The notes: generated by a model from the letters alone, not told the origin. 63,188 nucleotides of DNA, filler included, from Rhabdomonas costata (GCA_019059605.1; 10 parts of 10 records of this genome joined end to end with filler, not necessarily neighbours in it), one strand, 5' to 3'; counted from the whole stretch's first letter, positions 6,314 through 63,188 are shown. A program made the numbers and translations.

Positions 6314-6413
6314 NNNNNNNNNNNNNNNNNNNNNNNNNNNNNNNNNNNNNNNNNNNNTTAATTAATTAANNNNNNNNNNNNNNNNNNNNNNNNNNNNNNN
6401 NNNNNNNNNNNNN
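6314..6413. other. Artificial contig linker N44-TTAATTAATTAA-N44; identical linkers at 12490-12589, 18671-18770, 25575-25674, 31712-31811, 37823-37922, 45042-45141, 51102-51201, 57134-57233
   Basis: Identical 100-bp spacers with stops in all six frames; genes break at these points. Confidence 0.99.
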
Positions 6414-9400: not shown

Positions 9401-11995
9401 CCCAAAACGGCAAGGGCAGCACCGGCTTGTTTCCACTTTTGGCTCGCAGGAGACTCCGTCATCCACCCAGTGGTGACAAGCGCGGCAGCGCACTCCTCCG
9501 ACCTGACATTTTCCAAACGTTGAAGAAGAAAGGCTCTAATGCCATCAGAGGAGTCAAACTCCATGGCAATCTGCAAGGTTCGAATCACATCAAAAGCAAG
9601 CTGTAGGTCCAGGAAAACTGTATCCAAAGGTCGACCCTTCTTTTCGAAAGGGAGAAGAGCAGAAACAATTCCAAGTAACGCGTCGATCTCAGTATTTTCA
9701 AGTGAATCCAACAATCCATGAAAAATGGCTGACGAGGGGAGCTCCAGCAACTGCCGTCTGATGGCTGGCGAAAGGGCAGGGTTGCAAGCCAGATGAAGCA
9801 GCTGCCTCACAAACTGAACGAGAGGCTCTTGGATAAGCGAAGAAGCAACACCCACAATTACATGCAAGGGTCTCAGTAATGGAACGGATGCATACTCAGC
9901 GGACGTTTGCTTCACCTGACCCTGAAGTTGCAAGGACAAAGCCGCACACAAGGTACTGACGGCATCGCGGAAATGGCTCTGGACTTGCGGTCGCTCGGAG
10001 ACCGTCTTCGCTGATTTAAGCAGAAGATAGCTCAAAAGATCAACCGCAGTGTCTCCGAGGACAAGCATACCATTGGAAGACTCAGAGTTTTCAGTGATTG
10101 AGGCAGGATCAAACAGGAAGGGCTCCTGCCCAAAGTTGGCCTTAATGGTGGCCGGGCTTACAAAAAGAACGCATGGCACCCAATCCTGTGAGCTTGCGCA
10201 AGCCGTCTGCCCCCAAAGGGCACCGTTCTTCGTGAAAAATACTGTGAGTTCCGGGGAGGACGCGAGGCGAATGACACCCACACCCACAGTGTCACCTACG
10301 CACAACCCAGGCGCGAAGTCTCTGGCGAGCTCGCCGCCATCGTCAGTGCGCAGACGCGACAAGGACCCATCGTAATCATTATAAATCATCACCTTTGATC
10401 CGCTTTGGGTGTTGACGGAAGTGACCTCCGGAAGTTTTGTCAGCCCTATCCAGGGGCTTTTCTTAGGGTCGAACGCTTTCAAACAAACTTCATAGTAGCA
10501 CACTGGACATGAGGACGGAATGCCCCGCGTCGCGAACACGGCAAGCCCCTTTCGATTTTCCACATCACAATGAAACGTGAGTCCATCTGCATGAGTCGTC
10601 AGCGGGGCTACCGGGTCAGCTCTAAACGTATTCCAGGCGTAGGGCGGGGCCTCCGGTCGAGCGACTCCAGCAGAAAAGGTAACCATTTCAGCCAACACCC
10701 CTGCCTCGATGAGGCCGTCCAGTTCAGCACTTCCGCGCGAACCCACAAAGGCGAAAAAGCGCAGGCAGAGCCATTTCGTCGCAAATGTGGTGGCAGGAGA
10801 TTTGAAGATGCTTAAAACAGCGCGCAGAACACCAACTGACTTTTCACGAAGTGCTGCTTTAAGTTCGGGACCACAGCAGACGTCAGCAAAAAGCCCCATC
10901 ATTGAAAAGGATTGGGCATCATTCGGAGGCAGCAGAAGAGCGCGTAAAATGTACTCTCGGATTTCAATGGGATTCCCTCCATCGGCAGGACCAGTGTGGC
11001 GAAAGTTGATTGAAGAGGCCGAAAGGAGCGTTTCAGCGAGTTGCAAACACAAGCCAATCTGGCAAGCAGCCTTAAAGTGGCCGAGAAGCGCAGACTCACA
11101 CACATCAGGGTCCACTGTTGAGTCTGTAATAAAACCCAGCAGCTTGTCCACACGCTCTGCTAAGGCATCTGCAGGAAGACCCATGGTTTTGCGCACCTCG
11201 GAAGAACTAGCAGCGGATACCGCTCGGGCGCATGCAGGCAAGTCAGAAAAATCCCACGACACATCTGGGGACGGCTGTACCGGGGAAATGGGATGCAAGC
11301 ATTCCAAAACAAAGCGAGCTCGCTTCCCGGTGCGCTGGAGGGTCTGGGTGGACCCCTCCCGTTGACCCTGGTACAGGGCCTGAAAGCTCTGCCACAGCTG
11401 AGCCACTTTCCGAAATACCGTCGCCAGAATGGGGCTTGCCTCCTCCCCGATTTGAAGGGGTACCCCGCAGTGCCTCAAGGCGGCCGCCAGCACAACGCAA
11501 AGCACATGCTTGACAGCAGGGGCTAAGAGATGACCCCGAGGAAGTGGTAGAACTGAGGCGACCCCCTGCCAAAGGAGCTCGGCCACGCGGGCGGAAGCCG
11601 CGGAAGGAGGTGGAGCTGCTTCATCGGACAATGGGCAAATCCTGCAGAGGGCTGCAAGCACATCAGAGTCGGCGCTTTCAGGCTCAACAGCGGAATGAAC
11701 AGGCTCACCATCTGTGGACAAATTAAAAGGAGGACAAGGAAAATAACACTTTTACCATACAGTACCGTGCGGGATCTGCGCGTATCTCCTTATTTTGGAT
11801 GATACAGGCGGATCGGTGACAAAAGAAGAATTGAAAAGGCGACAAAACGCGGTGGTCGCAACATTCGAAAAGGCCAGGCACTCAAAAACAACGCCAAGAT
11901 GTACCGCGTGTGATCTTCCGTCCTCGGCCACGAGCCGTACGAGCACCACCCCGGTGAGCTGCCCGGCCCCGTCCACTGCACTTCTGCTCCTGCAT
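6414..11995 (-). CDS. Giant SPRY-domain protein with HERC/HECTD4-like features, 3'-truncated; exons 11995-11905, 11788-11756, 11711-6414
   Basis: Open exon of about 5.3 kb. SPRY motifs YYEV..WIGL..VGDTVGVG..VFFTKNG..IKANFGQEPFLFD; an AALAVLGG motif; a Mind-bomb SH3-like segment (GFTDIMRDYCGQIGTITSV..ARVQL); a probable second, degenerate SPRY (SYFEISLLKLG..LYFGL). Two small 5' exons join in phase through 116-nt and 44-nt GT-AG introns. No HECT or RING domain is visible here. Confidence 0.75.
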
Positions 11996-25674: not shown

Positions 25675-28600
25675 GTTTTTCTTTCTTAACTGTCTTAAAT
25701 GATTACAGTGTTATTGAGCAATTCTGCAGCTACAAGCATGCGTACAACACACAGAAACGTTATATTTCAAGCTTAAATTTTGTACAAGCTGTGGTGCAAC
25801 AGTAGCAGATTATAGTGCCGCAGATTTGTGCTCACGAGCCTGATTGGAATTAAATTCGTTTTATTGCTAATGTTGTAGAAGAGACATATCTAGATGGATG
25901 GAAGTGGCGTGCATACTGAATTATTTGAAACATTAAAAAACTAGCATAATATGAAGTCTTTACATTCTGCAAGTAGACGCTTTTCAGCAAAGACTCTAGT
26001 GATACAATTCTGGAAAGCCGTTGTTAATAGAATATACGGCTTAACTGCACTTTTGTACACATTCTACATGTTTTGCCATGTTGTCTCTTTATGACTTGAT
26101 TTATATTGCAAACTACGAAACTAAACTCTCAAATGGCTTCACAAATACAAGATTGCTCATCTGGTGGAACAGTTATGTCATTTCTGTGGTACCAGGAGGC
26201 CTCCATCCGAGCAGAATGGAAAGCGTGGATTCATCTTCTTCCAAATCTTTCCGGAAAAGCGTAGAGAAGCTGTGTTGCTGTCTTGTGTTGATAATGGAAA
26301 AGTGGAGTACATTTGTAAGGAGCTGTTGCGTTGTAAGACACACTTATTGCACTGACGGTGCTTGGGGACGTTTGAACGAGTGTTTGAATGCAAATGGAGG
26401 TGTGTACACCGGCCATGTTTAGGGTTACGTAAACGAGTTCCATTAGCGGAATAACATGGCTTCTGGTGACCTCTTCGTGAAGCTGAGTGAGAACATCCGT
26501 GATGGCTACTTACAGTGATTTTGGTCTTATTTGTTGATGGTTTTAGTTCAAAAATCCTCCCACCTGCTTGAAGGTATTTCTTGCAGATGGGTTAGGACGA
26601 CTTAAGAGCACATTTGTGGTTGTTCTAGTGGGACCGATCCACCACAGCCTATTTAAAATTTTAGGGAAGTAAAAGTTTGCAGTTATGTCAAATATACAAC
26701 AGACTTACAGATTTATTTGGAGCAAGACATGAGCTACACAACAAAAGTCTGGTCTTTTCATATTGCCATCGAGAAACGTTGTCTTTAAATCAATCAATTA
26801 AGTTCCAATGTTTGCAAAGTTTAGCCTGTCATTATAGTTCTACATTTATATTGCGTTTTGCACTAAATTATGTTCGTCATTGTGGAAACTTAAATCAAAC
26901 ACCGCAACCATTGCAGAGGAAAACTCCTTGGTATGGATGATTTAGAGCTTTCATAAAAACCAAAAAACTATAAAAATGAAAAATGCTTTCGAAGTCTTCT
27001 AATTTTAGGTAAATAAATGTGATCACTGATGAAGATTTATTTAAAAATATCTTCTAAGCGAACCAAATTAAGCACCCAGTTTGAGTTTAAAGATTTGATT
27101 AGTTATTAACTGATGCTAATGTCTCAACAGATCTAAAAAAAAGTCAATTTGAAAAATAATCTTCACCACATTAAAAACTTGCAAACAATATATACCTGTG
27201 TAGAAATATTTTTACTGAGGACTCTTTTGGACCCAAAACATACTGCTTCATTAGCAAAAGGTCAGTTACACCAAGAAACTCAGAAAATTATATGTGACGG
27301 TGTTCCATCGAAGTCTTTTCAGCCTATAGAAATGCCGCTGTTTTGGGACATTTTATGTTATAAACCGGACAGTTTTCTTGACGGGTAACATATAGGGCAG
27401 TTAGGTGTGTGGAATACTTTGTCGAGGGAGCGATTTTCCCCGGTGATTCCGTGAGTGTATTGGTCTTTTGAAGCAAAATGTAAATCTTTAACCGGCTGCT
27501 TGTTGAAAAGGTAAAGATATGGTTTAAAAAATCTATGGTATGGTGCAGTTCTGCGTTTACAGTGTGGCGTACTTTATAACAAAAACATGAGAAAAATGCA
27601 CCAAAAATGGAAAAAAGCGCACACAAAATGGCATCTGACATCACAAAAACATTTGCCATTTATAATTTCAGTACTAATTATTACCAGTTTTTGGGGTTAG
27701 TATTGACATTTCCAATCGGGTATTGAAAAATGAATATTTTGTCAAACCAGAAGTCCCAAGGGCCAGCAAACGAAGATGAAAACCCTCCACTTTAGCAAAA
27801 ACTATACATAAATCGGTTAAAAAGACGGAAAAAAGAGCGCATGTTTGTCTGGAAGCACCGCTTGATTCCTTTTTAAAGAAAAATGCGGCCTGTTGGCATG
27901 ATTTCTTTGCAAAAGCAATGACGGGTAGGCAAAACGAGTTCACAAAAACGAATAACGAGACCATTATGTTTCTAACATCTTGGATAAAGCTGGATTTTTC
28001 TGATTCGAGCGTCTTGGATAAAAGCTGGATTTTCTGAACAGATCCAAATTTAAGACCATGTGTACTCTCGAAAAAGCCCGTTTGTGTCACGGACGATGGC
28101 CTTATAAAAATAGGGTGTAGGAAAATACTTGCACGGAAGTGTTATGTATGCTAACTGTGACGCATTAGGTATTGGCAACACGGTATTAGTTGCTAAATGC
28201 AATTACTGTACGAAGAGTGGAATGAAAATAGGTGTTTTTTATCCTAGGTAATAGTCTGCTCAGGAAGAAACTTGAGTAGGCCACGTTGTTTTTCATGTCG
28301 TTGGTGATTTCTGTTTGTGATAAATGAACCTCTTGGAAGACTATGTAACAAAATGTACCAAGAGTTGACTGCTTTGCTTTGTTGCCTGTATTCAGCAGAG
28401 ATCTGCTTTGCTTAGTTTTAGCACAGTTGCAGTTGCTCTGTGAAATATGATTAAGTTGTAATTGTGCTGTGAATTTCAGCATTAAAGTAATTGCTTTTGT
28501 ACAGAAAGCGAAATAGTGTTGTGTTTATTTTCATTCCAATAAAATATCTGAGAATTTGGAGTAATTGCATTTTCCGTCCAAACGGAGACATATCCAGAAC

Positions 28601-31600
28601 ATAAATGCGTCTCGAAAAGCTGTTGAGTGTAAATTATAGGCATTATGTTGGTGTATTCAAAGACACTTTGGCGCCTCACTACTTCCTAAAAGCGGTGAGA
28701 CGAGAGCCTTGTTAAAGTTTCTTTGAATTGACCTTGACATGTAATTTTCCAGTCAAACGACTTGGCCGCAACACCTTCATGACTATACAGCTGCTGAAAT
28801 GGAAAACAGTGTTTGCACAGTATCCAAGGTTAGGTTGATGGCGGCACAAAAAGAAGAGTTTCAACGATGTTTCATAGGCCACTTTAGACGACTGTGCCTG
28901 ACCCAAGACCGCGTATGGACGTGGGAGTTAATAAAATGTGAGAAAAAAGCCCCAGGTCCAATACACATCCTGTGTAGAAACACATCTTGCACAAACACGT
29001 GCGGCTTCTCTGCACAACCCACCACCGCCTTTGCTCACAATTAACACATCCAACACTCACACAAAGGAATCAGGCTCCGTGAAACGTCATTCCGCTAACT
29101 ATGACTTGCAAGCGTACTGTCGCGAGAATCACTGCTGAACTTGAGGTCCTATACCAAGCGTCCTCCTCATCTTTTGTGGCGCTAATCACACCTCAGTGAG
29201 ACCGCATAAGTGCTCACATGCACCGCTGTTTTTCAAATTACCGCAATACATGCACACGATTCAATTTTTTGTGGTGGAGCGCTTTTCCACAACAACTGAT
29301 ATTAACCAAATTTCAACACCACACAGCCCGCATATTCTGTTTGCTTTTTTACTGCTTAGTTTTCTCATGATCAGGCATTTTTTATCGTTTCAAACGCTAC
29401 GTAGCGTTTGAAAACTCTGGGCATTCTGCTTTGATTCCGTTCAGTTCCGTGGAGAGTACTTTTTACCAGCTCCATAGTTCTTTTGTAAAGACTTTCGCCG
29501 CTTTTCTAGCATGTGTGTATTGAGTGTTTACGCCTTTTACACAAATGTGTCACCACGTTTCTTCCCTATCGTTTACTATGTCTCCGTATGTTCTAGTACT
29601 CAATAATAAGTTTTGTTTTTCTCTCTTAACTGTCTTAAATGATTACAGTGTTATTGAGCAATTCTGCAGCTACAAGCATGCGTACAACACACAGAAACGT
29701 TATATTTCTTTCGAAGTCTTCTAATTTTAGGTAAATAAATGTGATCACTGATGAAGATTTATTTAAAAATATCTTCTAAGCGTACCAAATTAAGCACCCA
29801 GTTTGAGTTTAAAGATTTGATTAGTTATTAACTGATGCTAATGTCTCAACAGATCTAAAAAAAAGTCAATTTGAAAAATGATCTTCACCACATTAAAAAC
29901 TTGCAAACAATATATACCTGTGTAGAAATATTTTTACTGAGGACTCTTTTGGACCCAAAACATACTGCTTCATTAGCAAAAGGTCAGTTACACCAAGAAA
30001 CTCAGAAAATTATATGTGACGGTGTTCCGTCGAAGTCTTTTCAGCCTATAGAAATGCCGCTGTTTTGGGACATTTTATGTTATAAACCGGACAGTTTTCT
30101 TGACGGGTAACATATAGGGCAGTTAGGTGTGTGGAATACTTTGTCGAGGGAGCGATTTTCCCCGGTGATTCCGTGAGTGTATTGGTCTTTTGAAGCAAAA
30201 TGTAAATCTTTAACCGGCTGCTTGTTGAAAAGGTAAAGATATGGTTTAAAAAATCTATGGTATGGTGCAGTTCTGCGTTTACAGTGTGGCGTACTTTATA
30301 ACAAAAACATGAGAAAAATGCACCAAAAATGGAAAAAAGCGCACACAAAATGGCATCTGACATCACAAAAACATTTGCCATTTATAATTTCAGTACTAAT
30401 TATTACCAGTTTTTGGGGTTAGTATTGACATTTCCAATCGGGTATTGAAAAATGAATATTTTGTCAAACCAGAAGTCCCAAGGGCCAGCAAACGAAGATG
30501 AAAACCCTCCACTTTAGCAAAAACTATACATAAATCGGTTAAAAAGACGGAAAAAAGAGCGCATGTTTGTCTGGAAGCACCGCTTGATTCCTTTTTAAAG
30601 AAAAATGCGGCCTGTTGGCATGATTTCTTTGCAAAAGCAATGACGGGTAGGCAAAACGAGTTCACAAAAACGAATAACGAGACCATTATGTTTCTAACAT
30701 CTTGGATAAAGCTGGATTTTTCTGATTCGAGCGTCTTGGATAAAAGCTGGATTTTCTTAACAGATCCAAATTTAAGACCATGTGTACTCTCGAAAAAGCC
30801 CGTTTGTGTCACTGACGTTGGCCTTATAAAAATAGGGTGTAGGAAAATACTTGCACGGAAGTGTTATGTATGCTAACTGTGACGCATTAGGTATTGGCAA
30901 CACGGTATTAGTTGCTAAATGCAATTACTGTACGAAGAGTGGAATGAAAATAGGTGTTTTTTATCCTAGGTAATAGTCTGCTCAGGAAGAAACTTGAGTA
31001 GGCCACGTTGTTTTTCATGTCGTTGGTGATTTCTGTTTGTGATAAATGAACCTCTTGGAAGACTATGTAACAAAATGTACCAAGAGTTGACTGCTTTGCT
31101 TTGTTGCCTGTATTCAGCAGAGATCTGCTTTGCTTAGTTTTAGCACAGTTGCAGTTGCTCTGTGAAATATGATTAAGTTGTAATTGTGCTGTGAATTTCA
31201 GCATTAAAGTAATTGCTTTTGTACAGAAAGCGAAATATTGCTGTGTTTATTTTCATTCCAATAAAATATCTGAGAATTTGGAGTAATTGCATTTTCCGTC
31301 CAAACGGAGACATATCCAGAACATAAATGCGTCTCGAAAAGCTGTTGAGTGTAAATTATAGGCATTATGTTGGTGTATTCAAAGACACTTTGGCGCCTCA
31401 CTGCTTCCTAAAAGCGGTGAGACGAGAGCCTTGTTAAAGTTTCTTTGAATTGACCTTGACATGTAATTTTCCAGTCAAACGACTTGGCCGCAACACCTTC
31501 ATGACTATACAGCTGCTGAAATGGAAAACAGTGTTTGCACAGTATCCAAGGTTAGGTTGATGGCGGCACAAAAAGAAGAGTTTCAACGATGTTTCATAGG

Positions 31601-31711
31601 CCACTTTACACGACTGTGCCTGACCCAAGACCACGTATGGACGTGGGAGTTAATAAAATGTGAGAAAAAAGCCCCAGGTCCAATACACATCCTGTGTAGA
31701 AACACCAACAC
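25675..31711. repeat. AT-rich tandem repeat, period 2722 bp (26987-29708, near-identical partial copy 29709-31711; tail of a previous unit 25675-25768; extra 1218-bp segment 25769-26986)
   Basis: Sequence from 26987 recurs at 29709 with few differences (near-identical ORFs at 27149/29871, 27324/30046, 28186/30908). 25675-25768 matches ~29615-29708. No recognisable protein. Confidence 0.95.
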
Positions 31712-51201: not shown

Positions 51202-51644
51202 GGGTTGGTTTCCGGAGGGTCGATTTTTGACAGAAAATTGGCTTGGCCTTTTTTGGCCTACCTCGGTTCTACCCTGTAAGGGTCGAAAATAGGGGTGTCT
51301 GGGGTGAAAAATCGACCCTCCGGAAATCGACCCAACATGAAGTTTCTGAGGTCGGGGATGCCGAAAAACGCGTTTTTGTGCGGATTTGAGGGTTTTTTGA
51401 GGTTGTGGTGGGGGCTTTTTGAGGCCATTTTCATTGAAAAAGGGGCGTTTTGGACCCAAAAGTACATCAAAAGGGATCAAAATGAGCGAAAATCGACCCC
51501 ATGGGCGAGTGACAAACATGGGAGGTAATTTCAAGCACTCCAAGCCACCAAGAGGAACTTCTCACGTGGGGGTCGAAAATGGGGTGTCTGGGGTGAAAAA
51601 AGCGACCCTCCGGAAATCGACCCAACTTGATATTTCTGAGGTCG
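51202..51644. repeat. Cluster of direct and inverted repeats built on AAAATCGACCC(TCCGGAAA), resembling a DNA-transposon subterminal region
   Basis: Direct repeat of ~74 bp at 51281-51354 and 51571-51644; inverted core copy at 51202-51228; short core copy near 51490. Confidence 0.75.
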
Positions 51645-51666
51645 CAGCGCCCTTGCTTGTACTGAA

Positions 51667-54600
51667 TTGAAAAGTTTTGCAGAAGCTACCGATGGCTTGC
51701 CGATCAGGGACGGGGTACAGTCTGCTCGGAGAATCGAGAGGACATATCTTTTTAGGAACCGGAATCCTCATGGTGGTCATGCGAACCTGGCTATTTCCAG
51801 GAAGCAAAACCCCCCAACGCTCGGACCATCAAATATACTTCCACGAAATTGTGTGGTGGATTCGACGGGCCTTTTGGAGCTTCGTTGTGAGCACGGTAGC
51901 CACGGGGTGGTGCGAGTGCGGCCAGGAGGTGAATGCTCACTCGTTGACTTGGGAAATGGCAAGCTCCAGTTCCGCCGCATTCAAGGGTCCTCAACCGCGC
52001 GCCGTGTTGGAAAGATTGCTATGTTTGACAACTCACGAGGGATTGGCAGCACACTGGCAATTTTTCCGGATCATCGACTTGCGTTTGAATATTTGGAGTC
52101 CCTTCCAGGGTTGACAAGCCTTCTTTCGGAAGGCTTTGTGCTGAAAAAGACTCTAAGCGGTGGCTTTGTTCTTATCATTCCTTCCTGGGCGCCTTCAGGG
52201 GTATTTGGATACTCGTGGTCTTTGCTAGACTGCCGGCAGCTGTTTGGCTTTGGCTTTTCAGAGGAAATAAGGAGCATCTTGACTTTCTTGTGCCAGAGGG
52301 TATATGACCTGTACTGGCGTGGTCGACAAGGGTGTCATCCTTGTCTTGGGAAGCCGCCCATGGATGTGTTTTCTATACTCGAGTGGTTTCGGAATCCTGC
52401 CTGTAACACGTGGACTGCAGAAAATGGTTGGCAAGTTGGGGATGGTCCTTTGGCTTGTGGTGAAGCCCTGGGCGGTTCTTCGTTTGCCGCTTCATATGAC
52501 GAGCAGGCCTTGAAAATGGTTATGCAGCACCACAATGAATTGATTGATTTGTTGCGTGCCATTTTGTCTGAGCTTGAAAAGACAGACCGGCGACAGGCTT
52601 TTGACGAGATCGTGCGAAAGGTGGTCACACCTGCTCAGCAGGCATACCTGCAGCCTGACTTTGAGCCCAAGCTCCGAAGATTGCTAGTTGGGGTTTCAAA
52701 CCCGGAGAACAGACTCAAGTTATCTGACATTCTCCTTGGCAGGTATTTGCGGAAGGAGTTCCCGCAGATCTTTTTGCCGTCCGTACTTTCCAACATCTTG
52801 TCCGCGCTTCAGGGGTTGTCCTTCGGAGATGGTTTGTGTGAAAGTTCTGGAACCCCACCTCAAAGCTTTTTGGGCGCGCCTTCGGAACCGGTCAACTCAG
52901 GACTGGATCTTCCTGCCAGTGATTATAGTGACGCTTCATCGCAGCGCAGTCGAAGTGATGTGGATGTTGATCATCAGACGTTATCTCAGGGGTACACGGA
53001 CACCTTGGCGGATTTGACAACCACTGTGTTTCCGCGCGAAGAAGGTTTTGGTTACGCAACTGTGAAAGTCCATGAACTTATAGACGCTATGCCATCGGAA
53101 AGCTTGGAGAAACCCGCGCTAATCACCATTGCGACTTTCATGCTCTCAACTTCGCGGCATAAGAACACCTACGATTCGTGCAATGGAAAGGTTCTTGCTT
53201 ATTTGTTCGACAGCAGAGTTGCCACAAGGGCTGTCCAACAAACTGCGGGGTTTTCCGGACGAACTGGAATCGGTCTCGATCGAACTGCGCTTGTGCCAGG
53301 TGACCTGAAGCGCCGAATTTATGGCTGGCTGGCTGATGTTCTGCGATCTCCACTTGACACCTCATGGAGGGCTGTTTTCTTTGACTATTGTGTGTCTGAA
53401 TGTGTCGGCTGTTTCCCAGTTGTTGAAGACAGCGTAGTTTCCCGGCAAATGTTTGTTGTCGCCTACTGCCTTGCGCAGGCATGCCCTTGTGAGCATATTC
53501 GAGACATGCTCGTCCGGGGTTTCAAGCCCTTTTTGGACAGGCGAGGACAGTTTTGCATTCGCAAAGATGGGCGTTACGGGGTTCAGTTTGTCGATTGCAG
53601 GTTATCAAAGCAGTTGGACAACGTTCAATTGCCTTTTTGTGATTGTGATCTCTCCGGTGATTTTGCATCCAAGGTTGAAGACGAGGTTCTTTATTCCAAG
53701 ATCGTGCAATGCTTTGCCGAGGTAACCTGCTTTGTTTACGTGCGGGGGCTCCGTTCTATCAGCGATCGGCTGCTGAAATGGATTTGCGAGTACACCGAGA
53801 GATGCCCATGGAGATTTGTGATGCTGGAAGCCACTGACTGCACCTTCAATTTTGCTGAAAACCGAGACCGATGCACCTTCCACTTCTACAACCCCGAATC
53901 AGCGAGGCTACCTACAACGGAGGTGGACTTCGCGCGGTGGGACAGGGAATACGCTGATTGGAAGGATACGGCGGGAATTCTTCGTACCTGCTTTGGGGAA
54001 GACAGCGTGGTCTTCAGTACTGAGCAGAGCGATCTGCTGAAAAACTGGGAAGATACAGTGCAAAAGCATTTGATCGTGGATGATTACGCCTTGGTGTATC
54101 TAGTTTCACCTCCAGGTGCCGGAAAGACTTTTTATCTGGAGAATGTGATACAGAAAGAGGTAAACGAGCAGAGAAGGCTGTACAAGCGGGTGGACTGCAG
54201 CAGCGACGAACTGGTGGAGCGAAGCCTTACGGAAATCCTGGAAGAGGCGTTTCCTTCGAAGCAGCCTGGGCTGCTGGTGGCTGACGAGTGGCACATGCTT
54301 TCTTCACAAATGAAGATGGAGCTTCTGCATTGGGTGAGCGCTCGTTCGGAGTTGCAGGCAGTACTGGTTGCCAACCGCACTGTCGGAGAAGATGACACCC
54401 TGTTGGCGGAGTTCCGTGGCTTTCGCCAGTCCATGGGTTGCCCCAATGATGTTGCGACGGTGCATGCCAGGCTACCTGTTGAGAAAATGGTACAAATGTA
54501 CCGGGACTCTTCTGATGGGTCAGAGGCAATGCTTTTCGAGCGCTTCTGTTGTGCCGCCCGAGGCATGTTTGGAGATGGTGCACTTTCCTTGCGAGATGTC

Positions 54601-57108
54601 GCACCCTTCGAGCGTGCGGTGAAACCCGCCCCTGCACAGGATCGACTCGAGGCCCTTTTGTTGCATAAGTTACCTATGGTTGGGCCTTACCTTGGCCATC
54701 GATTTGTGGAGATCATGCTCTCGGAGAATGTCGCGTCACATACTCCGGTGGGCTTGCTGATATGGGCGGCGCTCCTCGACCGCGAGAGCAAGGCGTTGCC
54801 GTACCCCCAGTTCGCACGTAAGCTCAAGAGAAGCCACCAGTTCCACCCGATTTTGCGTCTGATGGCATGGGTGACCTATCTCTGCCAGCTGTACAGGGAG
54901 CCCTGCCCATGCCTCGAACGGCTCGCTCATCTTCAGCTGACTGATCAAGTGGATTTCCCTCGTGTTCAGGGGGAAGGCAGGGCCGCCTCCCTTTCATGTT
55001 GTCAAGCATTTTATAACCCTGGGGAGTACACGGACTTGCTGTGGATGGTGTCCGCCTTGCAGCACGGTCAGGCCATTGACTGGAAGAGCGTGCGGGAGGA
55101 TTGGAGGTTTTTATTTGTTTTCGATTTTTCTGGTTTTTTTTTTGCATTTGATGAAAATTTTTTGTTTACCGTGGCGTTTTATTTATTAGCAAGCGTTACC
55201 TCTCCGACGCCGGAAGGGTTTCTGACCTCATTCACGTAGCCGCTGATCCAGCGACGGTTCTTCGATGCATCGAGAACTTGAACCTGTGCAACCTGATTCG
55301 AATAAGTGAAGGCCCACGGTTGAGTTGCCAAGTGATTGAGCATTACGAGGGCGTGGGTGTGGTTATAGACATGAATACGGAAAACTCGCCGCTTCTGCTA
55401 GCGGCATGGCACGTTGTGCGGCACACGGGTGCCGTGAATGGCCGCTACACTTTCGAGGCATGCTTTCGCGGTGCTCTGGAGTTCCTTTGGTATTTTCCAA
55501 AGTAGTTTTTTCCGCTTATGTTTGTTGATACCCACAATTAGTCAGCGGTGCTAAAGCGGTTCTGTAAGGGGGGCGGGGGTGGGGGGCAAGGGAAGTGCAG
55601 TGCAATTCCAAGTTAGAATACAACAACCCCCCCCCCGGATGTCGTTCTCTGGTTGTTTGTTGTTCGCCTTGCCATAGGATCTTCGACAGAGACTTGAGAA
55701 ACATCGCGTCACTATCCTCGACGTTCTGGTGTGGGCGAGCCGATATGCCTTCCATGTGCTGGACGTCCCGGACGATGTGGAGGGTCGGGAGAGAGCCCTG
55801 AGGCAGCTTCTCGCTGAAGAAACTAACTCTGCTGACACGCGATCCGCGGGATACGTCTCCCAAATGGTATGCCTGGGGCATTGTGGTAGTTTTTTGCCAG
55901 CTTCAGAGTTGCTGGATTCTAGTGCGAGTTTTGGTGTCCGAGTGGGTATTCAGGCTGATGATACCTTTGTTTACTTCGCGCGCGCGCACGCACACACACA
56001 CACACATACACAAACATTTCTTTCTCAACAGGTCATGCTAAAGGGCTTCCTCCCTAGGCCCCCAGCATCGAAGGGAACCCCACCACAAACACGAGTGGGC
56101 TACTTCACCAACTTCCGTGTTTCCACATACACTGGGGATCCATGTCCTACATAATGGCCCATGGGTGTAGGCCCATATAAGGGATCCTTGAAGTGCCCCT
56201 TTCTGGCTTAGCTTCCACAACCCCACAGCCTTGTGTGTTGTTCCTCCTATAGTTTTGTGTTTTAGAGTTTAGAGTTTTGAGATGTTTATGGGTCATAGAA
56301 CTTTGAGGGGTATAGGCCATAGAACACCATGGTCCAGCCGGACTGTAGGCTGGTTTATGGGGCCTATATGCCGGATAGTGGCTACCTCCGGTCTATCTAG
56401 CTCTGTATTTAGGCCGGGGAAGTTGGTATTACTGCACCCTCCACCCCAGATGGTGTGTGTGTGGGGGGGGGCACAACCCCCGGCTTTACTTTATTCCAGC
56501 GACCCCTTCCAAGAAAACTCAAGTTAAAAGCATGAATGTCAAAGCTATCTGATCTTGGAGCTGCACTGAAAAAACTTTGCTTCGGAAATTTTGGATGGAA
56601 GCCTGTGACCATGCCATGCCCTCTTTTGCCATACCCTCCCCCTGGTTTCTGCCAGGTGGACTTGTGGAGCGGCTTGTTCTGTCACCTCTTGCGGCTGGGA
56701 CGCCCTTCCGACGCGAAGCTCGCGGTGAGCTACCCTGTGGCCTTCTTTCTGGCCCGGTCGCAGCACCCACCGCGCAAAGAGTGGCCCGCCTTTGTGCAGC
56801 ACCTCTCTCACGTTCTGCATGGCAAGGCCTCTGCGGAGGATGTCGATAAGCTGTTCGATGAGAAGGCCTGCTTCTGGACGTCTCGCTCACCCGGTGGCAG
56901 TGCCGAGTTAGATGTTCCTGCTCAGCTCTTGGAATGCTTCCTGCGTCTCCGCGGGGCAATGCTCTCGGTCCGGTGGCAGGTTGAGCTGCTTCAGTCCTCT
57001 CTGACTTTATCCCTGCCAGAGGGCGTGGAGTTGTTGGAGGTTAAGAAGCTCTTCACTCCAGGACTGAAAAGGTTGCCCTCCAAGGACAATCTTACCGTCC
57101 TGGAGTGA
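51667..57108 (+). CDS. Large AAA+-type P-loop NTPase protein, paralog A; exons <=51667-55106, 55190-~55500, 55678-55866, 56656-~57108 (start, exon 2/3 join and 3' end uncertain)
   Basis: Walker A SPPGAGKT (~54106-54129), Walker B LLVADEWH and sensor-1-like VLVANR; extensive colinear similarity to the minus-strand gene at 58527-63182. Confidence 0.8.
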
Positions 57109-57238
57109 AGAGCTTCTTAACCTCCAAACAACANNNNNNNNNNNNNNNNNNNNNNNNNNNNNNNNNNNNNNNNNNNNTTAATTAATTAANNNNNNNNNNN
57201 NNNNNNNNNNNNNNNNNNNNNNNNNNNNNNNNNTGGGG

Positions 57239-57381
57239 GGGTTGGAAATATCCGGTGATTATCCATGCACAAAAGCGGTAAGACCTCTTTTAACAATTAT
57301 TCTGCCACCGGAGGGCAATGGTACAATGGCAAAAGGTCTTACCGCTTTTGTGCATGGATAATCACCGGATATTTCCAACCC
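57239..57381. mobile_element. Perfect 48-bp inverted repeat with 47-bp spacer (MITE/foldback-like)
   Basis: 57239-57286 (GGGTTGGAAATATCCGGTGATTATCCATGCACAAAAGCGGTAAGACCT) is the exact reverse complement of 57334-57381. Confidence 0.65.
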
Positions 57382-58526
57382 ACCTAGCTTTCATCTCTTC
57401 GCCCGGTAAAGCCCAGGTTCCATTTTTGCTCCATGTTTCGGCGGTGTTCGTCTTTCACCAGAACACAGGGCGATACCCATTGTTGATTAAAAAACGGATA
57501 AAATATCTGTTGGAAATTGAGGCCGCCTGCTGAAATCACAGTCAGCACAGGAAGCCCTTATATTGAGGAATCCGGAATCCGGAAGCAGCCGACGCTAGGT
57601 GAGAACACCGGGAAGCGCGGGGTCCACATGCGACGTGCGGAGGACGTACATCGCCTCCTGAGAAAGAGGAGGAGCACATCATCCTTCGCAGCTTGGTGGC
57701 GTTGGACCCGAGCGTCACGAGAGCCGTCCGGTGGTCGGGTGATAAGTGTAGATCTCTTTCGCTTAACCCCCTGCTGTGGAGGAGGGAGGCACGGAGGTTG
57801 CTTTGGCAATGCGGCCACAGCCAAAGCAACCTCCGTGCGGCCACTGCGGCCACTGCGGTGGTTCTTCCAGGAGGACAGTAATGGCTCCACCACCGGTGTA
57901 GATTCGGAGCAAACACCTGCGGATCTTGTTGCAGGGCGGAAACAGCCCAAAAAGCTCACGGGATAGCAGACAAAGACGCAGTCGGAGGAACAGGTAGAAT
58001 TGTGGTGGGCCCGAAGATCATTTAACACAGCCATTCAACGAACATACAAACAGACGAGTAAAGGCACCGGAAACATTCGGATGGACCACTTCAAAGCAGT
58101 TCTCATGCCCTCCTTTTGGTCTGTTTTGATTTGACGGCCCTAAAGTAGCCTTGAAAAGGGAACAGACTCACGCCAGAACAGACCCTTACAGAAAGCTATT
58201 GATCTATCCATATTCCTGTGGCCAGCAGGTTGATTGTCACACAAACAAAGCCCATTTTATGCCCATTTTATCTGTCCACGGTCAACTTCTCTGTGGCTCC
58301 GCAGGCGAAAAGTTGATTCGCCCAACCTGGGGTAAAGCAAGTGAAGCACCACAACAAAGATCCAAAGGTAAACGCAGAAACCCATATACACTCTAGAGCG
58401 CAACGTTCTAGATGCCGACCAGCGCAACGGTGGTACTACACACTCGCCAGTGATGCAAATCAGCAGATAAAGCATAACAAGGATGGTTCCACAAAAAGGA
58501 AGGTTGCGGAGCGGAAATATCTCAGC

Positions 58527-61500
58527 TCACTTGAGGCTCTTCTCGTTTTGGGTGAAGGCCTGGAGCAGCTGCTCCAAGTTTGTGGACTCCAGAAATTTCC
58601 CCTGCCCAGCGGTTGCCATTTCTTGTAGCTCAGTGTCCCTGCGGCGTCGGATCTCGTCGCCGAAGCTAATGGTGAAGAACTTTACCTTCATCTCTTTGAT
58701 CAGCTGCAAGATCTCGGGTTGGTCGTGATGAACGGGGTCACAGAGGATGTATCTACATGAGCGGCCCAACACATCCTCCGCAGCACGCGGAGGGGCACCA
58801 TCACCGTCGATGCCATCGGACAAAAAGATGACAACGGGCTTCACTTGCATCGAGGCTTCCGACGACTCACCGCGTCCTAACTTCTGGTGCAGAAGCTGAA
58901 CGACCGGAAGAAACCTGGTCTCGTTCGAGATTTTCTCTCTAAGAACATCGGTTCTTCTATGAAGAACTTGAATTAACGGAACCCGATCCAGCACCAAATT
59001 GGGCTGGTCATTAAATGTGATCACTGTAGCAAGATCTCCGCTCACTACGGCAGAACGTTTTTGGGCAAACTTACCAAGCACCCCCACCACTGCGCCGTAG
59101 CGGCCGTTACAGGCGTGGGTGCGATCGTAATCAGAGCTATCCTTGCTTGTGGCAAAAACTCCCTGAGTGGGAAACCTGCGGATATCCCCGTCTGTGGGCT
59201 GGATATCAGTCTTTCTCATCGATCCACTCTTGTCGATCACAAACAGGAAGTGAAACTTCTGCACTTCACACTTCAATGTGACCGCTGGTGCCCAGGCCTC
59301 CGCGTCGATGGGGGGCCATAACTGCTCATAGGCTGCCTTAAGAATCTCATTCAAGGGCCCAGTCACCCTAATGTGGACCTTGGACGGGAGACGTTTCAGA
59401 CCCGGAGTAAAAAGCTTCTTAATGTCCATCACGTCGGCTCCCTCCGAGAGTGGCAGCGCGACATCCGACTGCAGGATGGCTTCCTGCCAGCGAACAGAGA
59501 GCATTCCTTCCTGAAGACTCAAAAAGCAGTGTAAAAGTTCCGGAGGAACACACAGAGCGGTGTCTGGAGCCCAAAAGCACAGGTGTTCATCAAACAGAGC
59601 ATCAATGTCCTGGGCCGAGCCTTTCTCATGAAGAACGTGGGACAAGCGCTGCACAAACATGGGCCACTCCTCACGCGGGGGGTGTTGCGAATGAGCGAGC
59701 AGGAAGGCGGTGGGGTAGTACTGCACGGCTTCACTGGGACCCAAGCAGAGCAAATGGCAGAACAAGCCACTCCAGAGCTCGACAATGGTGGAGCTGTATC
59801 TCGGGTCCTCAGGGTCCAGGGCGTTGGTTTCAGCGATCAAAAGACGCTGCAGAGAAAGCTCTCGGCCCCCCGGGTCATCGGCCACGTCCAGAACATGGAA
59901 GGCGTTCCGGCTCGCCCAAACCAAGACATCAACTAGGCGAATTCCGTGCTTCTGCACCCTGGTGGGGAGGTCCTGCAGGAAGGAAACCAAAAGGCCGGAG
60001 AGGAACAACGTCGCATTTTGAGCTCGGTGCCTGGAGTGCAGTCTCACTGATTGCGAAGGAAAGGAGCTCAAGTGAACTCAGGGGGGGGGGAGGTGTTCAA
60101 CGGAACAACGTTGCCGCAGGATCATGGCCGAAAACTTGGGCTTTATAATTAACCACTTTTCACTGGCTGAAGCAGTTACTTGCTGGATTTGGTGGATGAA
60201 TGGGGCAGAATATTTTTGGGCACGACTGGGTGGCTGAGACGGCAAAGAAATTTTGCTGCACGAAAACGAGCTCATTAAGGCAAAACCAAATTCAACCTCG
60301 ATGTCATAAACGCCGTCCTTGTTTTTCAAGTGCCGTAGCAGGTGCCACACAGCAAGCATAAGCGGGGAGTTTTCGTAGTCCATCATAGCACTGGTGCCAC
60401 CGGTGTAGTGCTCCACCACCAGGCTACTCAGGCGCGAGCCTTCGCTGATTCGGATCAGATTGCAGAGATTCAAGACGTCAATACACGAGATGACCCTCGC
60501 AGGATCAGGAGCGACGTGAAGCAGATCCGCGAACTTCTCAGCGTCGGAGATGTAGCATTTGCTACAAACAAAATGACATTTGACTTAGCTTGAAAAAGTG
60601 ACGACACATCACTGACTGCAACTGACAGAAACACGAGAAAGTCTATGGCATCTGTTCCCTCGAACAACGCTCGAACTACGGAGGAGGGGTGGCTGCGAAA
60701 CCACATTTAAGTTCGAGTTACATAAGATTCCTGTGGGGGTACTGCTTTGTCATTTACGTAGCCTTTTCCCAGGCATGAAAGCCCACTCCAACAAACTGAA
60801 TTTGTCCAAAAACGTGGGCGCGTAAAAAAAAACTGACCTCCACAGCTCGCGGGCGCCTTTCCAGTCAATGGCTTGGCCATGCTGCAAGGCCGAAATGATC
60901 CAAAGAAGGTCCATATAATCCCCAGGCTGGTAGAATGCCCGGCAGGAAGTAAGCGACGCTACCCTGCACTCACCCACAATCCGTGGAAAGTCGACCTGGT
61001 CAACCATCTGAAGCTGACACAGAAGCTCAATGGGAAGGTGGTCGCGGCGGTAAAGCCCGCACATGTAGATGACCCAGGCCATCAACCGAAAGATGGGATG
61101 GTATTTGTGGCTACCCTCCAAACGGCGCGAAAATTGCGGGTACGACAACGCCTTTTCCTCCACGTCAAGTAGTGCAACAGTAACTAAGACGCCAAAGGCA
61201 GAGTCCGCCGAATCCACACTTGCTCGCACGAGGGAAACAAAGTGATGTGCTGTGTACATGCCTATCATCGGCAGCTTTCGAAGCAAAAGTGCCTCTAGGT
61301 GGGCTTGTTCTGATGTGGACTGAACAGCGTCCTGAAATGGCCTAATGTCTCTCAGAGACAACGCGCCGTCACCGAACAATCCTCGGGCAGCACGACAAAA
61401 GCGTTCAAACAGCTCAACTTTGGGGCCACCGCCAGCAGCCCGGTAAAGCTTCGCCATCTTTTCGACAGTCAGCCTAGCCTCCACAAGTTGAGCCATCGGA

Positions 61501-63182
61501 TAGCAGTCTCCTCTACTGGTGCAGACCTTTTCCAAGAGCTTGGTGTCGTCTCCGATAGTGCGGTTTGCTACTAAAACAGCTTGCAGCCCAGGCCTCACAC
61601 CTACCCATCGTAGCAGCTCCTGTTTCATTGGAAGAGAAAGCATGTGCCACTCATCAGCAACCAGCAGTCCAGTCTGAGTTGACGGAAAGGCTTCCTCCAA
61701 TATGTGGGTCAAACTGAACTCCACCAACTCGTCGCTGCTGCAGTCAACACGTTTGTACATTCGGCCCTGCTTGCTCACCTCTTTCTGAACAATGTTTTCC
61801 AGGAAGTAGGTCTTTCCCGCTCCCGGAGGTGAAACCAAGTAGACCAAGTGGCACGAACTGGACACAACCAAGTTGAAAACAATACTTTCCCAATCCTTCT
61901 TCACGCGAGTCAACTCTGGACGGAAGATCAAACTTTCCTTTCCAAAACAGTGCAGCAACGCCTTGTGGAAGCTTGCAGTATCATTTCCAAGGGCAGACCC
62001 CGAGTCCCACCTGGCGTAGTCAACGTCTGTAGTCGGTGGCGGTGAAAGATCGGCATGAAAGAATCGGTAAATGCACCTGTCACGATTCTCAGCAAAATTG
62101 AAGATGCTGTCGGTGCCCTCCAGCATAACAAATCGCCACGGGAACCGCTCCGTGTACTCACACAGCCACTTAAGCAACCTGTCACTGATGAAAGCCAAGC
62201 CTCGAACATAAACAAAGCACGTGAGCTCTGCGAAGCAACGCGTGATCTTCGAATACAGAATTTCGTCCTGCACACGTGAGACAAAATCAACGGAAAGATC
62301 GCAAGTGGAGTGAGGCAATCCAAACAGAGCCATCTGTTTGCATGTGAGAGAATCGACAAAGTGGACTCCGTACCGCCCGTCTTTCCGAACACAGTAATCC
62401 GCCCGCCTGCCAAGGTGTGGCTTGCAGCAACGGACGAGGATATCCTGTGTTTTCGCAACCGGACACGCCTGTGCAAGACAGTATGCGATAAGGAACATTT
62501 GTCTTGAGATCACATCCTCCTCCGAGGAATCCGGGAAGCTTCGAATGCAGTCCGAAATGCAGTGATCAAAAAACACCGATGTCCACTTCCGGTCGAGTGG
62601 GGAACGCACAATGTCAGCCAGCCAGCCCAAGACGTGGTATTCAAGATCAACACAAGTACTTGAGGAACCCCGAGCAACGGCACACTCGGCAACCTTGCTG
62701 TCAAAAAGAAACGCCAAAACCTTCCCGGAGCACGAATCGTATGTATTTTTGTGCCTGGATTTTGAGAGCACGTAAAAGGTAGGCACAATGTCCGAGCCAT
62801 CTGCATCCTCGAAGCCTTCTGTTGGCATTGCGACGACAACTTCACCCAATTTTGCCGTCGCTTTCCCGAATCCCTCTTCATTTTCTGGAAACAGGATGGA
62901 AATAGCTCCTTTTTTCGATTCGCAAAGGCTGCCCGGAGATGTAAAACTGACTTGCTCCGAATCAACGGGATCCTGGTTATCGGTAGGACTTTCGCAGAGA
63001 ACATCAGCCGTAAAAAGACGCGCCAGATCCCCGTCATCGCTGTCAGGTGCGTCGGCAGCAGAACAGTCAAAACCTGAGTTAACGAGTTCAAATCCCTGCT
63101 TCTCAATAACCTCAGGAGAAGGTATCGGACTGATGTCATCGTTCTGAAAGGCATCCATTTTCAATTTCTGAACCTCAGACAA
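58527..63182 (-). CDS. Large AAA+-type NTPase with C-terminal vWA domain, paralog B, 5'-truncated; exons >63182-60838, 60561-60180, 59972-58527
   Basis: Walker A SPPGAGKT, Walker B LLVADEWH and VLVANR; vWA domain with complete MIDAS (FLFVIDKSGSM, NETRF, VIFLSDG, FFTISFG). GT-AG joins are phase-consistent. Confidence 0.85.
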
Positions 63183-63188
63183 AACACC

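Follow-up and report, generated by a model that had tools for sequence, protein, structure and literature searches.

The window analysed here is a 63,188-base stretch of Rhabdomonas costata DNA (GCA_019059605.1) that consists of ten contigs of ~6-7 kb joined via N44-TTAATTAATTAA-N44 spacers, and two of these contigs carry related genes that we refer to as copy A and copy B. Contig 9 (51202-57133) carries copy A on the plus strand and contig 10 (57234-63188) carries copy B on the minus strand; GC content is 0.52 in both, and is similar in seven of the remaining eight contigs. Copy B is a truncated gene of ~1,350-1,390 residues with a complete AAA+ nucleotide site and a terminal domain of the von Willebrand factor A (vWA) type. 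The two copies are very likely the C-terminal parts of two in-paralogous genes from a family of giant eukaryotic proteins that has no name and a patchy distribution, and we give a rough probability of 0.55 to the fuller explanation that joins this identity to the mechanism proposed below. No homologs of either copy were found by tblastn in the other eight contigs, and an Rfam scan of the window gave no matches.

In copy B the reading frame stays open between the contig end (63188) and 60750, and is followed by frames of 168 codons and 516 codons. The gene and its domains are arranged as follows, with motifs at the end of the list (a slash marks a splice junction).

60838..63188, minus strand: copy B exon 1, with its 5' end cut by the contig end; encodes the pre-AAA domain, then the AAA+ module, then what follows the lid
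60562..60837, minus strand: copy B intron 1, GT..AG, 276 nt, phase 2; donor AG/GTCAGT, acceptor tag/C before 60561
60180..60561, minus strand: copy B exon 2; candidate donors CAA/GTAACT after 60180 or GGC/GTTTAT after 60312
59972-58530, minus strand: copy B exon 3; acceptor cag/GAC before 59972, stop codon TGA at 58527-58529
61977..62399, minus strand: family-specific alpha/beta pre-AAA domain (model residues 95-235)
61272..61904, minus strand: AAA+ core and helical lid (model residues 260-470)
60834..61271, minus strand: post-lid helices and then a three-stranded element (model residues 471-616, DSSP)
59316..59972, minus strand: helical domain of exon 3, the usual C-terminal domain of the family
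58530..59264, minus strand: vWA domain of exon 3, reading on from the helical domain with no break in the frame
62118-62177, minus strand: D..LLKW..EYT...PWRF, pre-AAA domain
62073-62099, minus strand: NFAENRDRC, pre-AAA domain
61809-61832, minus strand: Walker A, SPPGAGKT
61644-61667, minus strand: Walker B, LLVADEWH
61560-61577, minus strand: sensor 1, VLVANR (ANR)
61470-61481, minus strand: conserved R (EARL)
61350-61367, minus strand: SLR in the lid
within 59217-59243, minus strand: metal ion-dependent adhesion site (MIDAS) motif DKSGS
58911-58925, minus strand: MIDAS T of NETRF
58812-58826, minus strand: MIDAS D of FLSDG

The splice order of copy B is predicted by homology across relatives. 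In tblastn comparisons with 15 long relatives all copy B alignments stop at 60825-60849, at the intron 1 donor, and copy A alignments stop mostly at 55095-55107, at the donor of its own intron 1; several relatives then resume in exon 2 at the adjacent residue (P0010, 3012 to 3013; P0013, 3037 to 3039). The three exons correspond to positions 3-363, 361-437 and 443-655 of a family hidden Markov model (HMM), and the nearest full-length relatives are collinear with all three blocks. Candidates for intron 2 are a near tie against the family HMM, with scores of 199.0 to 193.1; likeness to the relatives stops near residue 93, and likeness between copies A and B reaches ~60280. With the CAA/GTAACT donor at 60180, the three blocks total 4,176 nt or 1,392 codons, in agreement with the partial protein of ~1390 residues described in an earlier reading made from the DNA by itself (hereafter the sequence-only reading). 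The vWA domain needs no splicing: one unbroken frame encodes both it and the helical domain. An in-frame intron inside an insertion in the vWA domain was considered and rejected, the sole GT..AG pair there being just 13 nt apart.

Copy A has a comparable organization, with its features as follows.

51640..55106, plus strand: copy A large exon, a 1,199-codon open frame; 5' boundary uncertain
53848-53874, plus strand: NFAENRDRC
54106-54129, plus strand: Walker A
54271-54294, plus strand: Walker B
54361-54378, plus strand: sensor 1
55107-55189, plus strand: copy A intron 1, at the position homologous to copy B intron 1
55190..57108, plus strand: downstream exons, with exon 2 from 55190, a block at 55678-55866 and the last block from 56656
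55867-56655, plus strand: extra intron of 789 nt, ATG/GTATGC ... ccag/GTG
57106-57108, plus strand: stop codon TGA, 25 nt before the contig end at 57133

In a tblastn comparison copies A and B share 54% identity across 766 residues, their later exons match too, and the identity between them is put at 54-58%; the clear paralog that the sequence-only reading placed on a separate contig is thus present on contig 9. The upstream part of copy A matches relatives at about residue 2,200-2,550. Nonsynonymous divergence (dN) is 0.34 and synonymous divergence (dS) is saturated (undefined by the NG86 method; 1.79 by LWL85), with a dN/dS ratio of about 0.19 by LWL85, a comparison between paralogs that had been proposed earlier. 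The low ratio, together with the dN and saturated dS, identifies the copies as an old duplicate under purifying selection, which is what the strong divergence previously remarked on reflects. Chance is excluded as an explanation of these reading frames by the 3.6 kb and 2.4 kb over which they are open, by dN of 0.34 against a saturated dS, and by the 243 database relatives described below.

Several details at the ends of copy A are worth recording. The coding sequence of copy B is continuous where copy A has its 789-nt intron, which is a gain or loss between the paralogs. Reading of the sequence found no in-phase GT donor for copy A intron 2. The copy A frame stops ~18 residues short of the usual end of the family; the GT at 57105-57106 could be a further donor. 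Upstream of the large frame, at 51202-51640, there are two copies of a ~55-nt unit that is probably a short interspersed repeat within an intron.

The NTPase region of copy B is an AAA+ module, as had been proposed. The motifs SPPGAGKT, LLVADEWH and VLVANR are intact and present in both copies, and an AlphaFold2 (AF2) model of residues 170-785 of the copy B fragment, built with a 57-row family alignment, has a predicted local distance difference test score (pLDDT) of 91.4 and a predicted template modelling score (pTM) of 0.90. The best Foldseek matches of the model are all AAA+ proteins, and it has an alpha-beta-alpha P-loop core with strand order 5-1-4-3-2 and a C-terminal helical lid. Pfam gives weak generic matches (AAA_22, E 1.2e-4 for copy B and 1.4e-6 for copy A), and the family profile matches Cdc6 and RFC1 over ~160 positions with E about 1e-3. 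A single helix (350-361) lies between beta-3 and beta-4 and the helix-2 insert is absent; having neither hairpin nor helix-2 insert, the module belongs with the insert-less grade of clamp loaders, initiators and related STAND proteins and not with MoxR, dynein or midasin.

Each of 46 long relatives has a single conserved P-loop, at about residue 1,320-3,900, with Walker A at the expected site in 44, Walker B in 43 and sensor 1 in 45. Both Walker motifs, the asparagine of sensor 1, the arginine after beta-5 and the SLR arginine are invariant among close relatives and conserved family-wide; the residues invariant among close relatives include R403 (after beta-5), R433 and R444 (SLR, lid), candidates for an arginine finger and a sensor-2 arginine. 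The conserved rear part of the family very likely has the order alpha/beta domain, single insert-less and catalytically complete AAA+ module (clamp-loader/Orc-Cdc6 grade), post-lid region and helical domain of ~300 residues, with a consensus of SPPGxGK[ST], hhhhDE[YFW]H, [AG]NR, a conserved R after beta-5 and SLR in the lid. These motifs would fit an active ATPase. The SLR arginine looks like AAA+ sensor 2, and the sensor-1 'IANR' resembles the 'GIAN' motif of Cdc6/Orc1.

The domain ahead of the AAA+ core has a beta-alpha-beta pattern with pLDDT mostly 87-97 (DSSP of the model), and holds the most conserved motifs of the family, LLKW..EYT..PWRF and N[FY]xENRDRC, the columns of which are invariant among close relatives and conserved family-wide. 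Its secondary structure pattern allows a reading in which this domain, and perhaps others further upstream, are degenerate AAA modules of a cryptic midasin-, dynein- or RNF213-type ring onto which the C-terminal MIDAS docks. In a single hhalign comparison with the AAA+ block its strands pair, in the correct order, with beta-2, beta-3 and alpha-3 of the core, but not significantly (probability 0.5%, E 0.11). Foldseek aligns ~500-600 model columns with the tandem-AAA proteins p97, Rix7 and NSF, at template modelling scores of 0.21-0.25, and the layout of a huge N-terminus, AAA, helical linker and C-terminal MIDAS recalls midasin. However, there is one P-loop per protein, AAA_5 matches one of 57 members (E 0.0028), and the pre-sensor-1 hairpin is absent from the secondary structure of the model. 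Six tandem P-loop AAA modules were found in none of the 46 long relatives, a count that concerns modules with a P-loop and leaves degenerate ones aside, the hairpin and helix-2 insert of the MoxR clade are lacking in the copy B model, and Pfam scans of the window proteins and 11 long relatives gave no AAA_5 match.

Searches for the proteins themselves give a similar result. Two full-length relatives (a Monosiga protein and P0183) have no PDB sequence matches; P0001 and P0002 gave spurious PDB matches alone (E 0.012-0.13). RNF213 combines a dynein-like six-AAA core with an E3 module that has a RING finger; neither the window proteins nor 11 long relatives have a RING or other E3 match in Pfam. 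Midasin, dynein heavy chain and RNF213 are absent among the best 50 structural rows of each of two lists, weaker rows of which could still hold them. We consider a cryptic ring improbable. Judged by P-loop count, AAA_5, Pfam and PDB searches, the protein cannot be recognised as midasin, VWA8 or RNF213, which upholds the sequence-only reading on the first two.

The terminal vWA domain of copy B is marginal by Pfam in the whole exon-3 frame, with 27.3 bits for VWA_2 and 19.9 bits for VWA, and the isolated last 254 residues reach 30.4 bits with VWA_2 (gathering cut-off 27; E 6.3e-7) and 23.5 with VWA (cut-off 23.8). Its closest homolog, P0107, is an independent protein with the same helical-then-vWA layout and passes both cut-offs, and all ten best Atlas rows for the copy B domain are VWA clusters or unnamed clusters. 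In an alignment with the vWA domains of five relatives, the MIDAS columns are occupied by DKSGS, by the T of NETRF and by the D of FLSDG, and the predicted metal ligands are in place; the VWA_2 score and this alignment bear out, at the sequence level, the earlier claim of a terminal vWA with all MIDAS residues. There is a ~45-residue insertion after the DxSxS motif, partly common to P0107.

The vWA domain of copy B is appended ~20 residues beyond the usual end of the family, and in the tail alignment the copy B sequence carries on where its nearest relatives P0190 and P0088 stop. In most long relatives the chain ends no more than 60 residues from the helical domain. A C-terminal vWA was found with an HMM built here in 7 of 43 long relatives (P0011, P0013, P0030, P0038, P0049 and P0050/P0182), and P0192 (Balamuthia) and the 2,263-residue P0193 also carry one; Pfam alone recovers AAA+ followed by a C-terminal vWA in P0011, P0013, P0030, P0038, P0192 and P0193. 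A vWA domain, which the sequence-only reading treated as defining the family, is thus a minority feature of it, most members ending where that of copy B starts. Long-tail members have ~350-400 residues, with a further conserved and unnamed domain among them, separating the helical domain from the vWA, whereas in copy B and P0107 the vWA follows the helical domain directly. By jackhmmer and BLASTP, the copy B vWA matches P0107 alone among the relatives' vWA domains (P0013 vWA, E 2.5). With no detectable similarity to those of P0011 and P0013, it is of a divergent type, and it is possible on this comparison that it was gained separately from the long-tail vWA.

The second conserved C-terminal domain is ~210-270 residues long and has no Pfam match (L001 about 11130-11755; P0183 residues about 3700-3907). 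It is also present in P0015, P0011, P0013, P0030, P0038, P0049 and P0050, and it ends P0183 and a Monosiga protein, both without a vWA.

When 1.84 billion representatives were scanned exhaustively by HMMER, with the copy B fragment as query, 243 proteins passed a threshold of E<=1e-3; 148 passed E<=1e-10 and 58 passed E<=1e-30. The length of many of these relatives is 3,100-4,900 residues, with the copy B region matching at about residue 2,400-3,300, and family proteins range over about 2,700-4,900 residues. A single 3,952-codon frame (P0183) takes up the whole of an 11,946-nt metagenome contig. The window therefore contains just the rear third of each gene, the real genes being ~3 times longer, and contigs 9 and 10 should be annotated as holding gene fragments. 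The AAA-vWA fusion described in the sequence-only reading stands in that the vWA is in a continuous frame with the helical region; the protein is not one of ~1,400 residues, and what was seen is the rear third of a giant one. Many members are also homologous to one another across their N-terminal 2,000 or more residues, with 20-25% identity over up to about 1,800 residues. In word-based protein searches P0003 gave 3 matches near its own length and 7 in the 'longer' mode, including the closest full-length relatives, and P0002 residues 36-516 gave none near its length.

Names were obtained for 30 of the 150 listed clusters, and from the 'longer' mode search (Balamuthia and one further source label). 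They include A9VB62 and A9VB63 of Monosiga brevicollis, whose locus tags follow each other on a single scaffold, the choanoflagellates Barroeca monosierra and Salpingoeca infusionum, Kipferlia bialata, four Symbiodinium species, Balamuthia mandrillaris, and EukProt transcripts (GEMP01... and EG_transcript_22). Bodo saltans has at least ten distinct proteins, with CUG93875-93877 on one 42-kb contig and CUG90391-90392 on another. The family thus spans choanoflagellates, Amoebozoa, kinetoplastids, metamonads and dinoflagellates, and there are no animal, fungal or plant names among the 30 clusters looked up. All named members are uncharacterised, with public labels of 'hypothetical', 'PAT23' and 'GT2 protein'. 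The labels 'PAT23' (P0017 and P0157-P0159, Symbiodinium) and 'CAZy families GT2 protein' (P0192, Balamuthia) look like transferred mis-annotations; the Pfam content of P0192 is AAA and vWA domains alone. A full-text literature search, supplements excluded, found no paper on the family or its accessions, and the family is not mentioned in the passages returned from the Bodo genome paper or from Kaur et al. 2021 (eLife, PMC8195603). We conclude that the family is real, unnamed and widely scattered, and that its giant proteins include an unusual pairing of AAA+ with vWA.

A quick tree built by maximum likelihood from 60 rows, after removal of near-identical cluster mates and of rows with fewer than 250 of 363 columns, places copies A and B as sisters (SH-like approximate likelihood ratio test [SH-aLRT] support 99), joined next by the fragment P0009 (99). 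This group lies loosely with P0190, EG_transcript_22 and P0183, and adjoins the group of vWA-bearing Balamuthia, P0193, P0011 and P0013. The Bodo proteins form two species-level clusters, and the consecutively tagged Monosiga genes fall in deeply separated clades, so that the family contains old subfamilies as well as recent local expansions. The lineage expansion suggested earlier is well founded, both in the sister relationship of A and B and in the Bodo paralogs, some of which share a contig.

The distribution of the family across eukaryotes is patchy, and a recently acquired, mobile or virus-derived gene might be considered, in line with the very long exons and with the first Atlas row of the NTPase search, an unnamed cluster with some viral members. 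Several observations argue otherwise. The GC content of 0.52 is as in neighbouring contigs, both copies have spliceosomal introns with intron 1 at the identical site, and the duplicate is old. Scans with two peptide patterns from a 6-row alignment, which are of limited sensitivity, gave 29 pattern matches in 185,579 prokaryotic species genomes of GTDB and 64 in IMG/VR with no relative among either; the metagenome motif scan gave 21 loci. No transposase, integrase or terminal repeats flank the copies within their contigs, the hairpin on contig 10 (see below) being unrelated. There is no sign of a mobile or recently acquired gene, such an origin can be given very little credence, and the acquired or mobile origin floated in the sequence-only reading is not borne out.

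The local expansions also invite comparison with STAND proteins, in which an NBD, a helical domain and a winged helix form a triad. Here the family would be a surveillance or immune hub in which the AAA+ module oligomerises on ligand recognition, the C-terminal modules are sensor or adaptor cassettes, and the expansions reflect an arms race with viruses or prey bacteria. Nine of the ten best rows in the Atlas feature search are P-loop NTPase clusters, seven with nSTAND3 or nSTAND_NTPase5 and some with Mrr_cat (scores 0.91-0.93), Avs5 is a structural match to the AAA+ model, and there are weak Pfam matches to nSTAND_NTPase5 in 7 of 57 members and to nSTAND3 in 4. The Bodo paralogs, several on shared contigs, the consecutive Monosiga genes, the in-paralogy of A and B and the variable C-terminal tails are all in keeping with this. 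However, all of the nSTAND matches are below Pfam cut-offs, and AAA_22 (29 of 57) and AAA (26 of 57) are commoner; the conserved lid arginine has the look of sensor 2, and Pfam finds no LRR, WD40 or TPR repeat sensor. Across supergroups the N-terminal part, of 2,000 or more residues, is conserved and not variable, the comparison of A with B gives no signal of diversifying selection (dN/dS of about 0.19 or less), and PADLOC gave no meaningful match (one weak, mad8, E 0.0015). A STAND-like hub, the main rival to the mechanism proposed below, thus seems unlikely, although the family possibly has some surveillance role.

A more speculative and unlikely scheme is that of an ancient eukaryotic family of giant proteins having one AAA+ site. 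Animals, fungi and plants would have lost it, and free-living protists would have retained it and expanded it in tandem as an NLR-like surveillance hub. The ENRDR domain and the AAA+ site would form a new intramolecular switch, and swappable C-terminal cassettes (a MIDAS vWA, the second unnamed domain, or none) would set sensing or recruitment.

Returning to membership in a giant-protein family as the identity of copies A and B, the mechanism that we attach to it, at a confidence well short of even and by analogy with known machines, is an ATP-gated switch with a MIDAS ligand clamp. The lone ATP site would act as a nucleotide-gated switch that alters the conformation or assembly state of the giant scaffold, and the terminal MIDAS of copy B would clamp an acidic side chain of a protein ligand via a divalent cation. 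ATP turnover may then govern capture, release or pulling of the ligand.

A number of points weigh against this explanation. No known fold is assigned to the pre-AAA domain, the most conserved of the family. The AAA+ module may work alone or in an oligomer, a homodimer prediction with model residues 95-480 giving no answer (score 0.00). The AF2 model of the vWA part, from a 13-row alignment, has pLDDT of 30-45, and this part has no PDB sequence match at E<=1. The MIDAS clamp cannot be the core function of the family because most members have no vWA. Finally, the N-terminal two thirds have no recognised Pfam domain in the 11 long relatives scanned, and the main activity may reside there, outside the window.

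Some features of the neighbouring sequence are also informative. Contig 2 has a frame of ~1,780-1,797 codons (5.3 kb; 6358-11751, minus strand) that is open across nearly the entire contig, has no Pfam match at E<=0.01 and is unrelated to copies A and B; it is another very long exon of a large protein. Multi-kb exons are therefore not special to the copy A/B family. Contig 5 (25675-31711) has a GC content of 0.38 compared with 0.50-0.54 in the other nine contigs, and a direct repeat with a ~2.7 kb period, such that frames 27324-27659 and 30046-30381 give an identical translation; it may be repetitive or of different origin. At the very start of contig 10, ~1.1 kb downstream of the copy B stop codon, is a 54-nt inverted repeat (57236-57289 and 57331-57384, 96% complementary, with a 41-nt loop) that could be a hairpin resembling a miniature inverted-repeat transposable element (MITE) or a contig-end assembly artefact.

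The family pattern raises the questions of presence in the last eukaryotic common ancestor and of a conflict or surveillance role in protists, and comparison with known systems shows where the family departs from each. STAND proteins (NLR/Apaf-1, Avs, and the nSTAND3 and nSTAND5 groups of Kaur et al. 2021, PMC8195603) are alike in having a central switch NTPase, variable modules and lineage expansions, and differ in that this family has no repeat sensor by Pfam, a conserved giant N-terminus and nSTAND matches below threshold. The ATPase core and lid find their best matches, in structure and by profile, among the RFC, Orc1/Cdc6 and DnaA modules, the core of which is likewise insert-less; membership is nevertheless not seen at the sequence level (E about 1e-3, 12-18% identity), and there are no replication partner domains in what is a giant protein with flanking domains of its own.

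Midasin (Rea1/Mdn1) likewise joins an AAA+ motor, a long linker of helices and a MIDAS vWA at the C-terminus in one very large chain, and a likely common logic is ATP-driven movement acting on a MIDAS-held ligand. It has six tandem modules of AAA_5 (MoxR/dynein) type near its N-terminus, whereas this family has one P-loop, at about residue 2,400-3,300, AAA_5 in one of 57 members and no hairpin, with the C-terminal MIDAS domain confined to copy B and a minority of relatives. VWA8, the MoxR-vWA pairs (RavA-ViaA, CbbQ-CbbO and NorQ-NorD) and the Mg-chelatase D subunit also pair an AAA+ ATPase with a MIDAS domain; the family is not a member of the midasin, VWA8, MoxR-vWA or ChlD groups, since the features that define those clades were looked for and are lacking. 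To our knowledge the AAA+/vWA machines described so far (midasin, VWA8, the MoxR partners and the chelatases) all use one AAA+ clade. The proteins described here would share their logic on a different one, pairing a vWA with an RFC/Cdc6-like module inside undescribed proteins of 3,000-4,900 residues.

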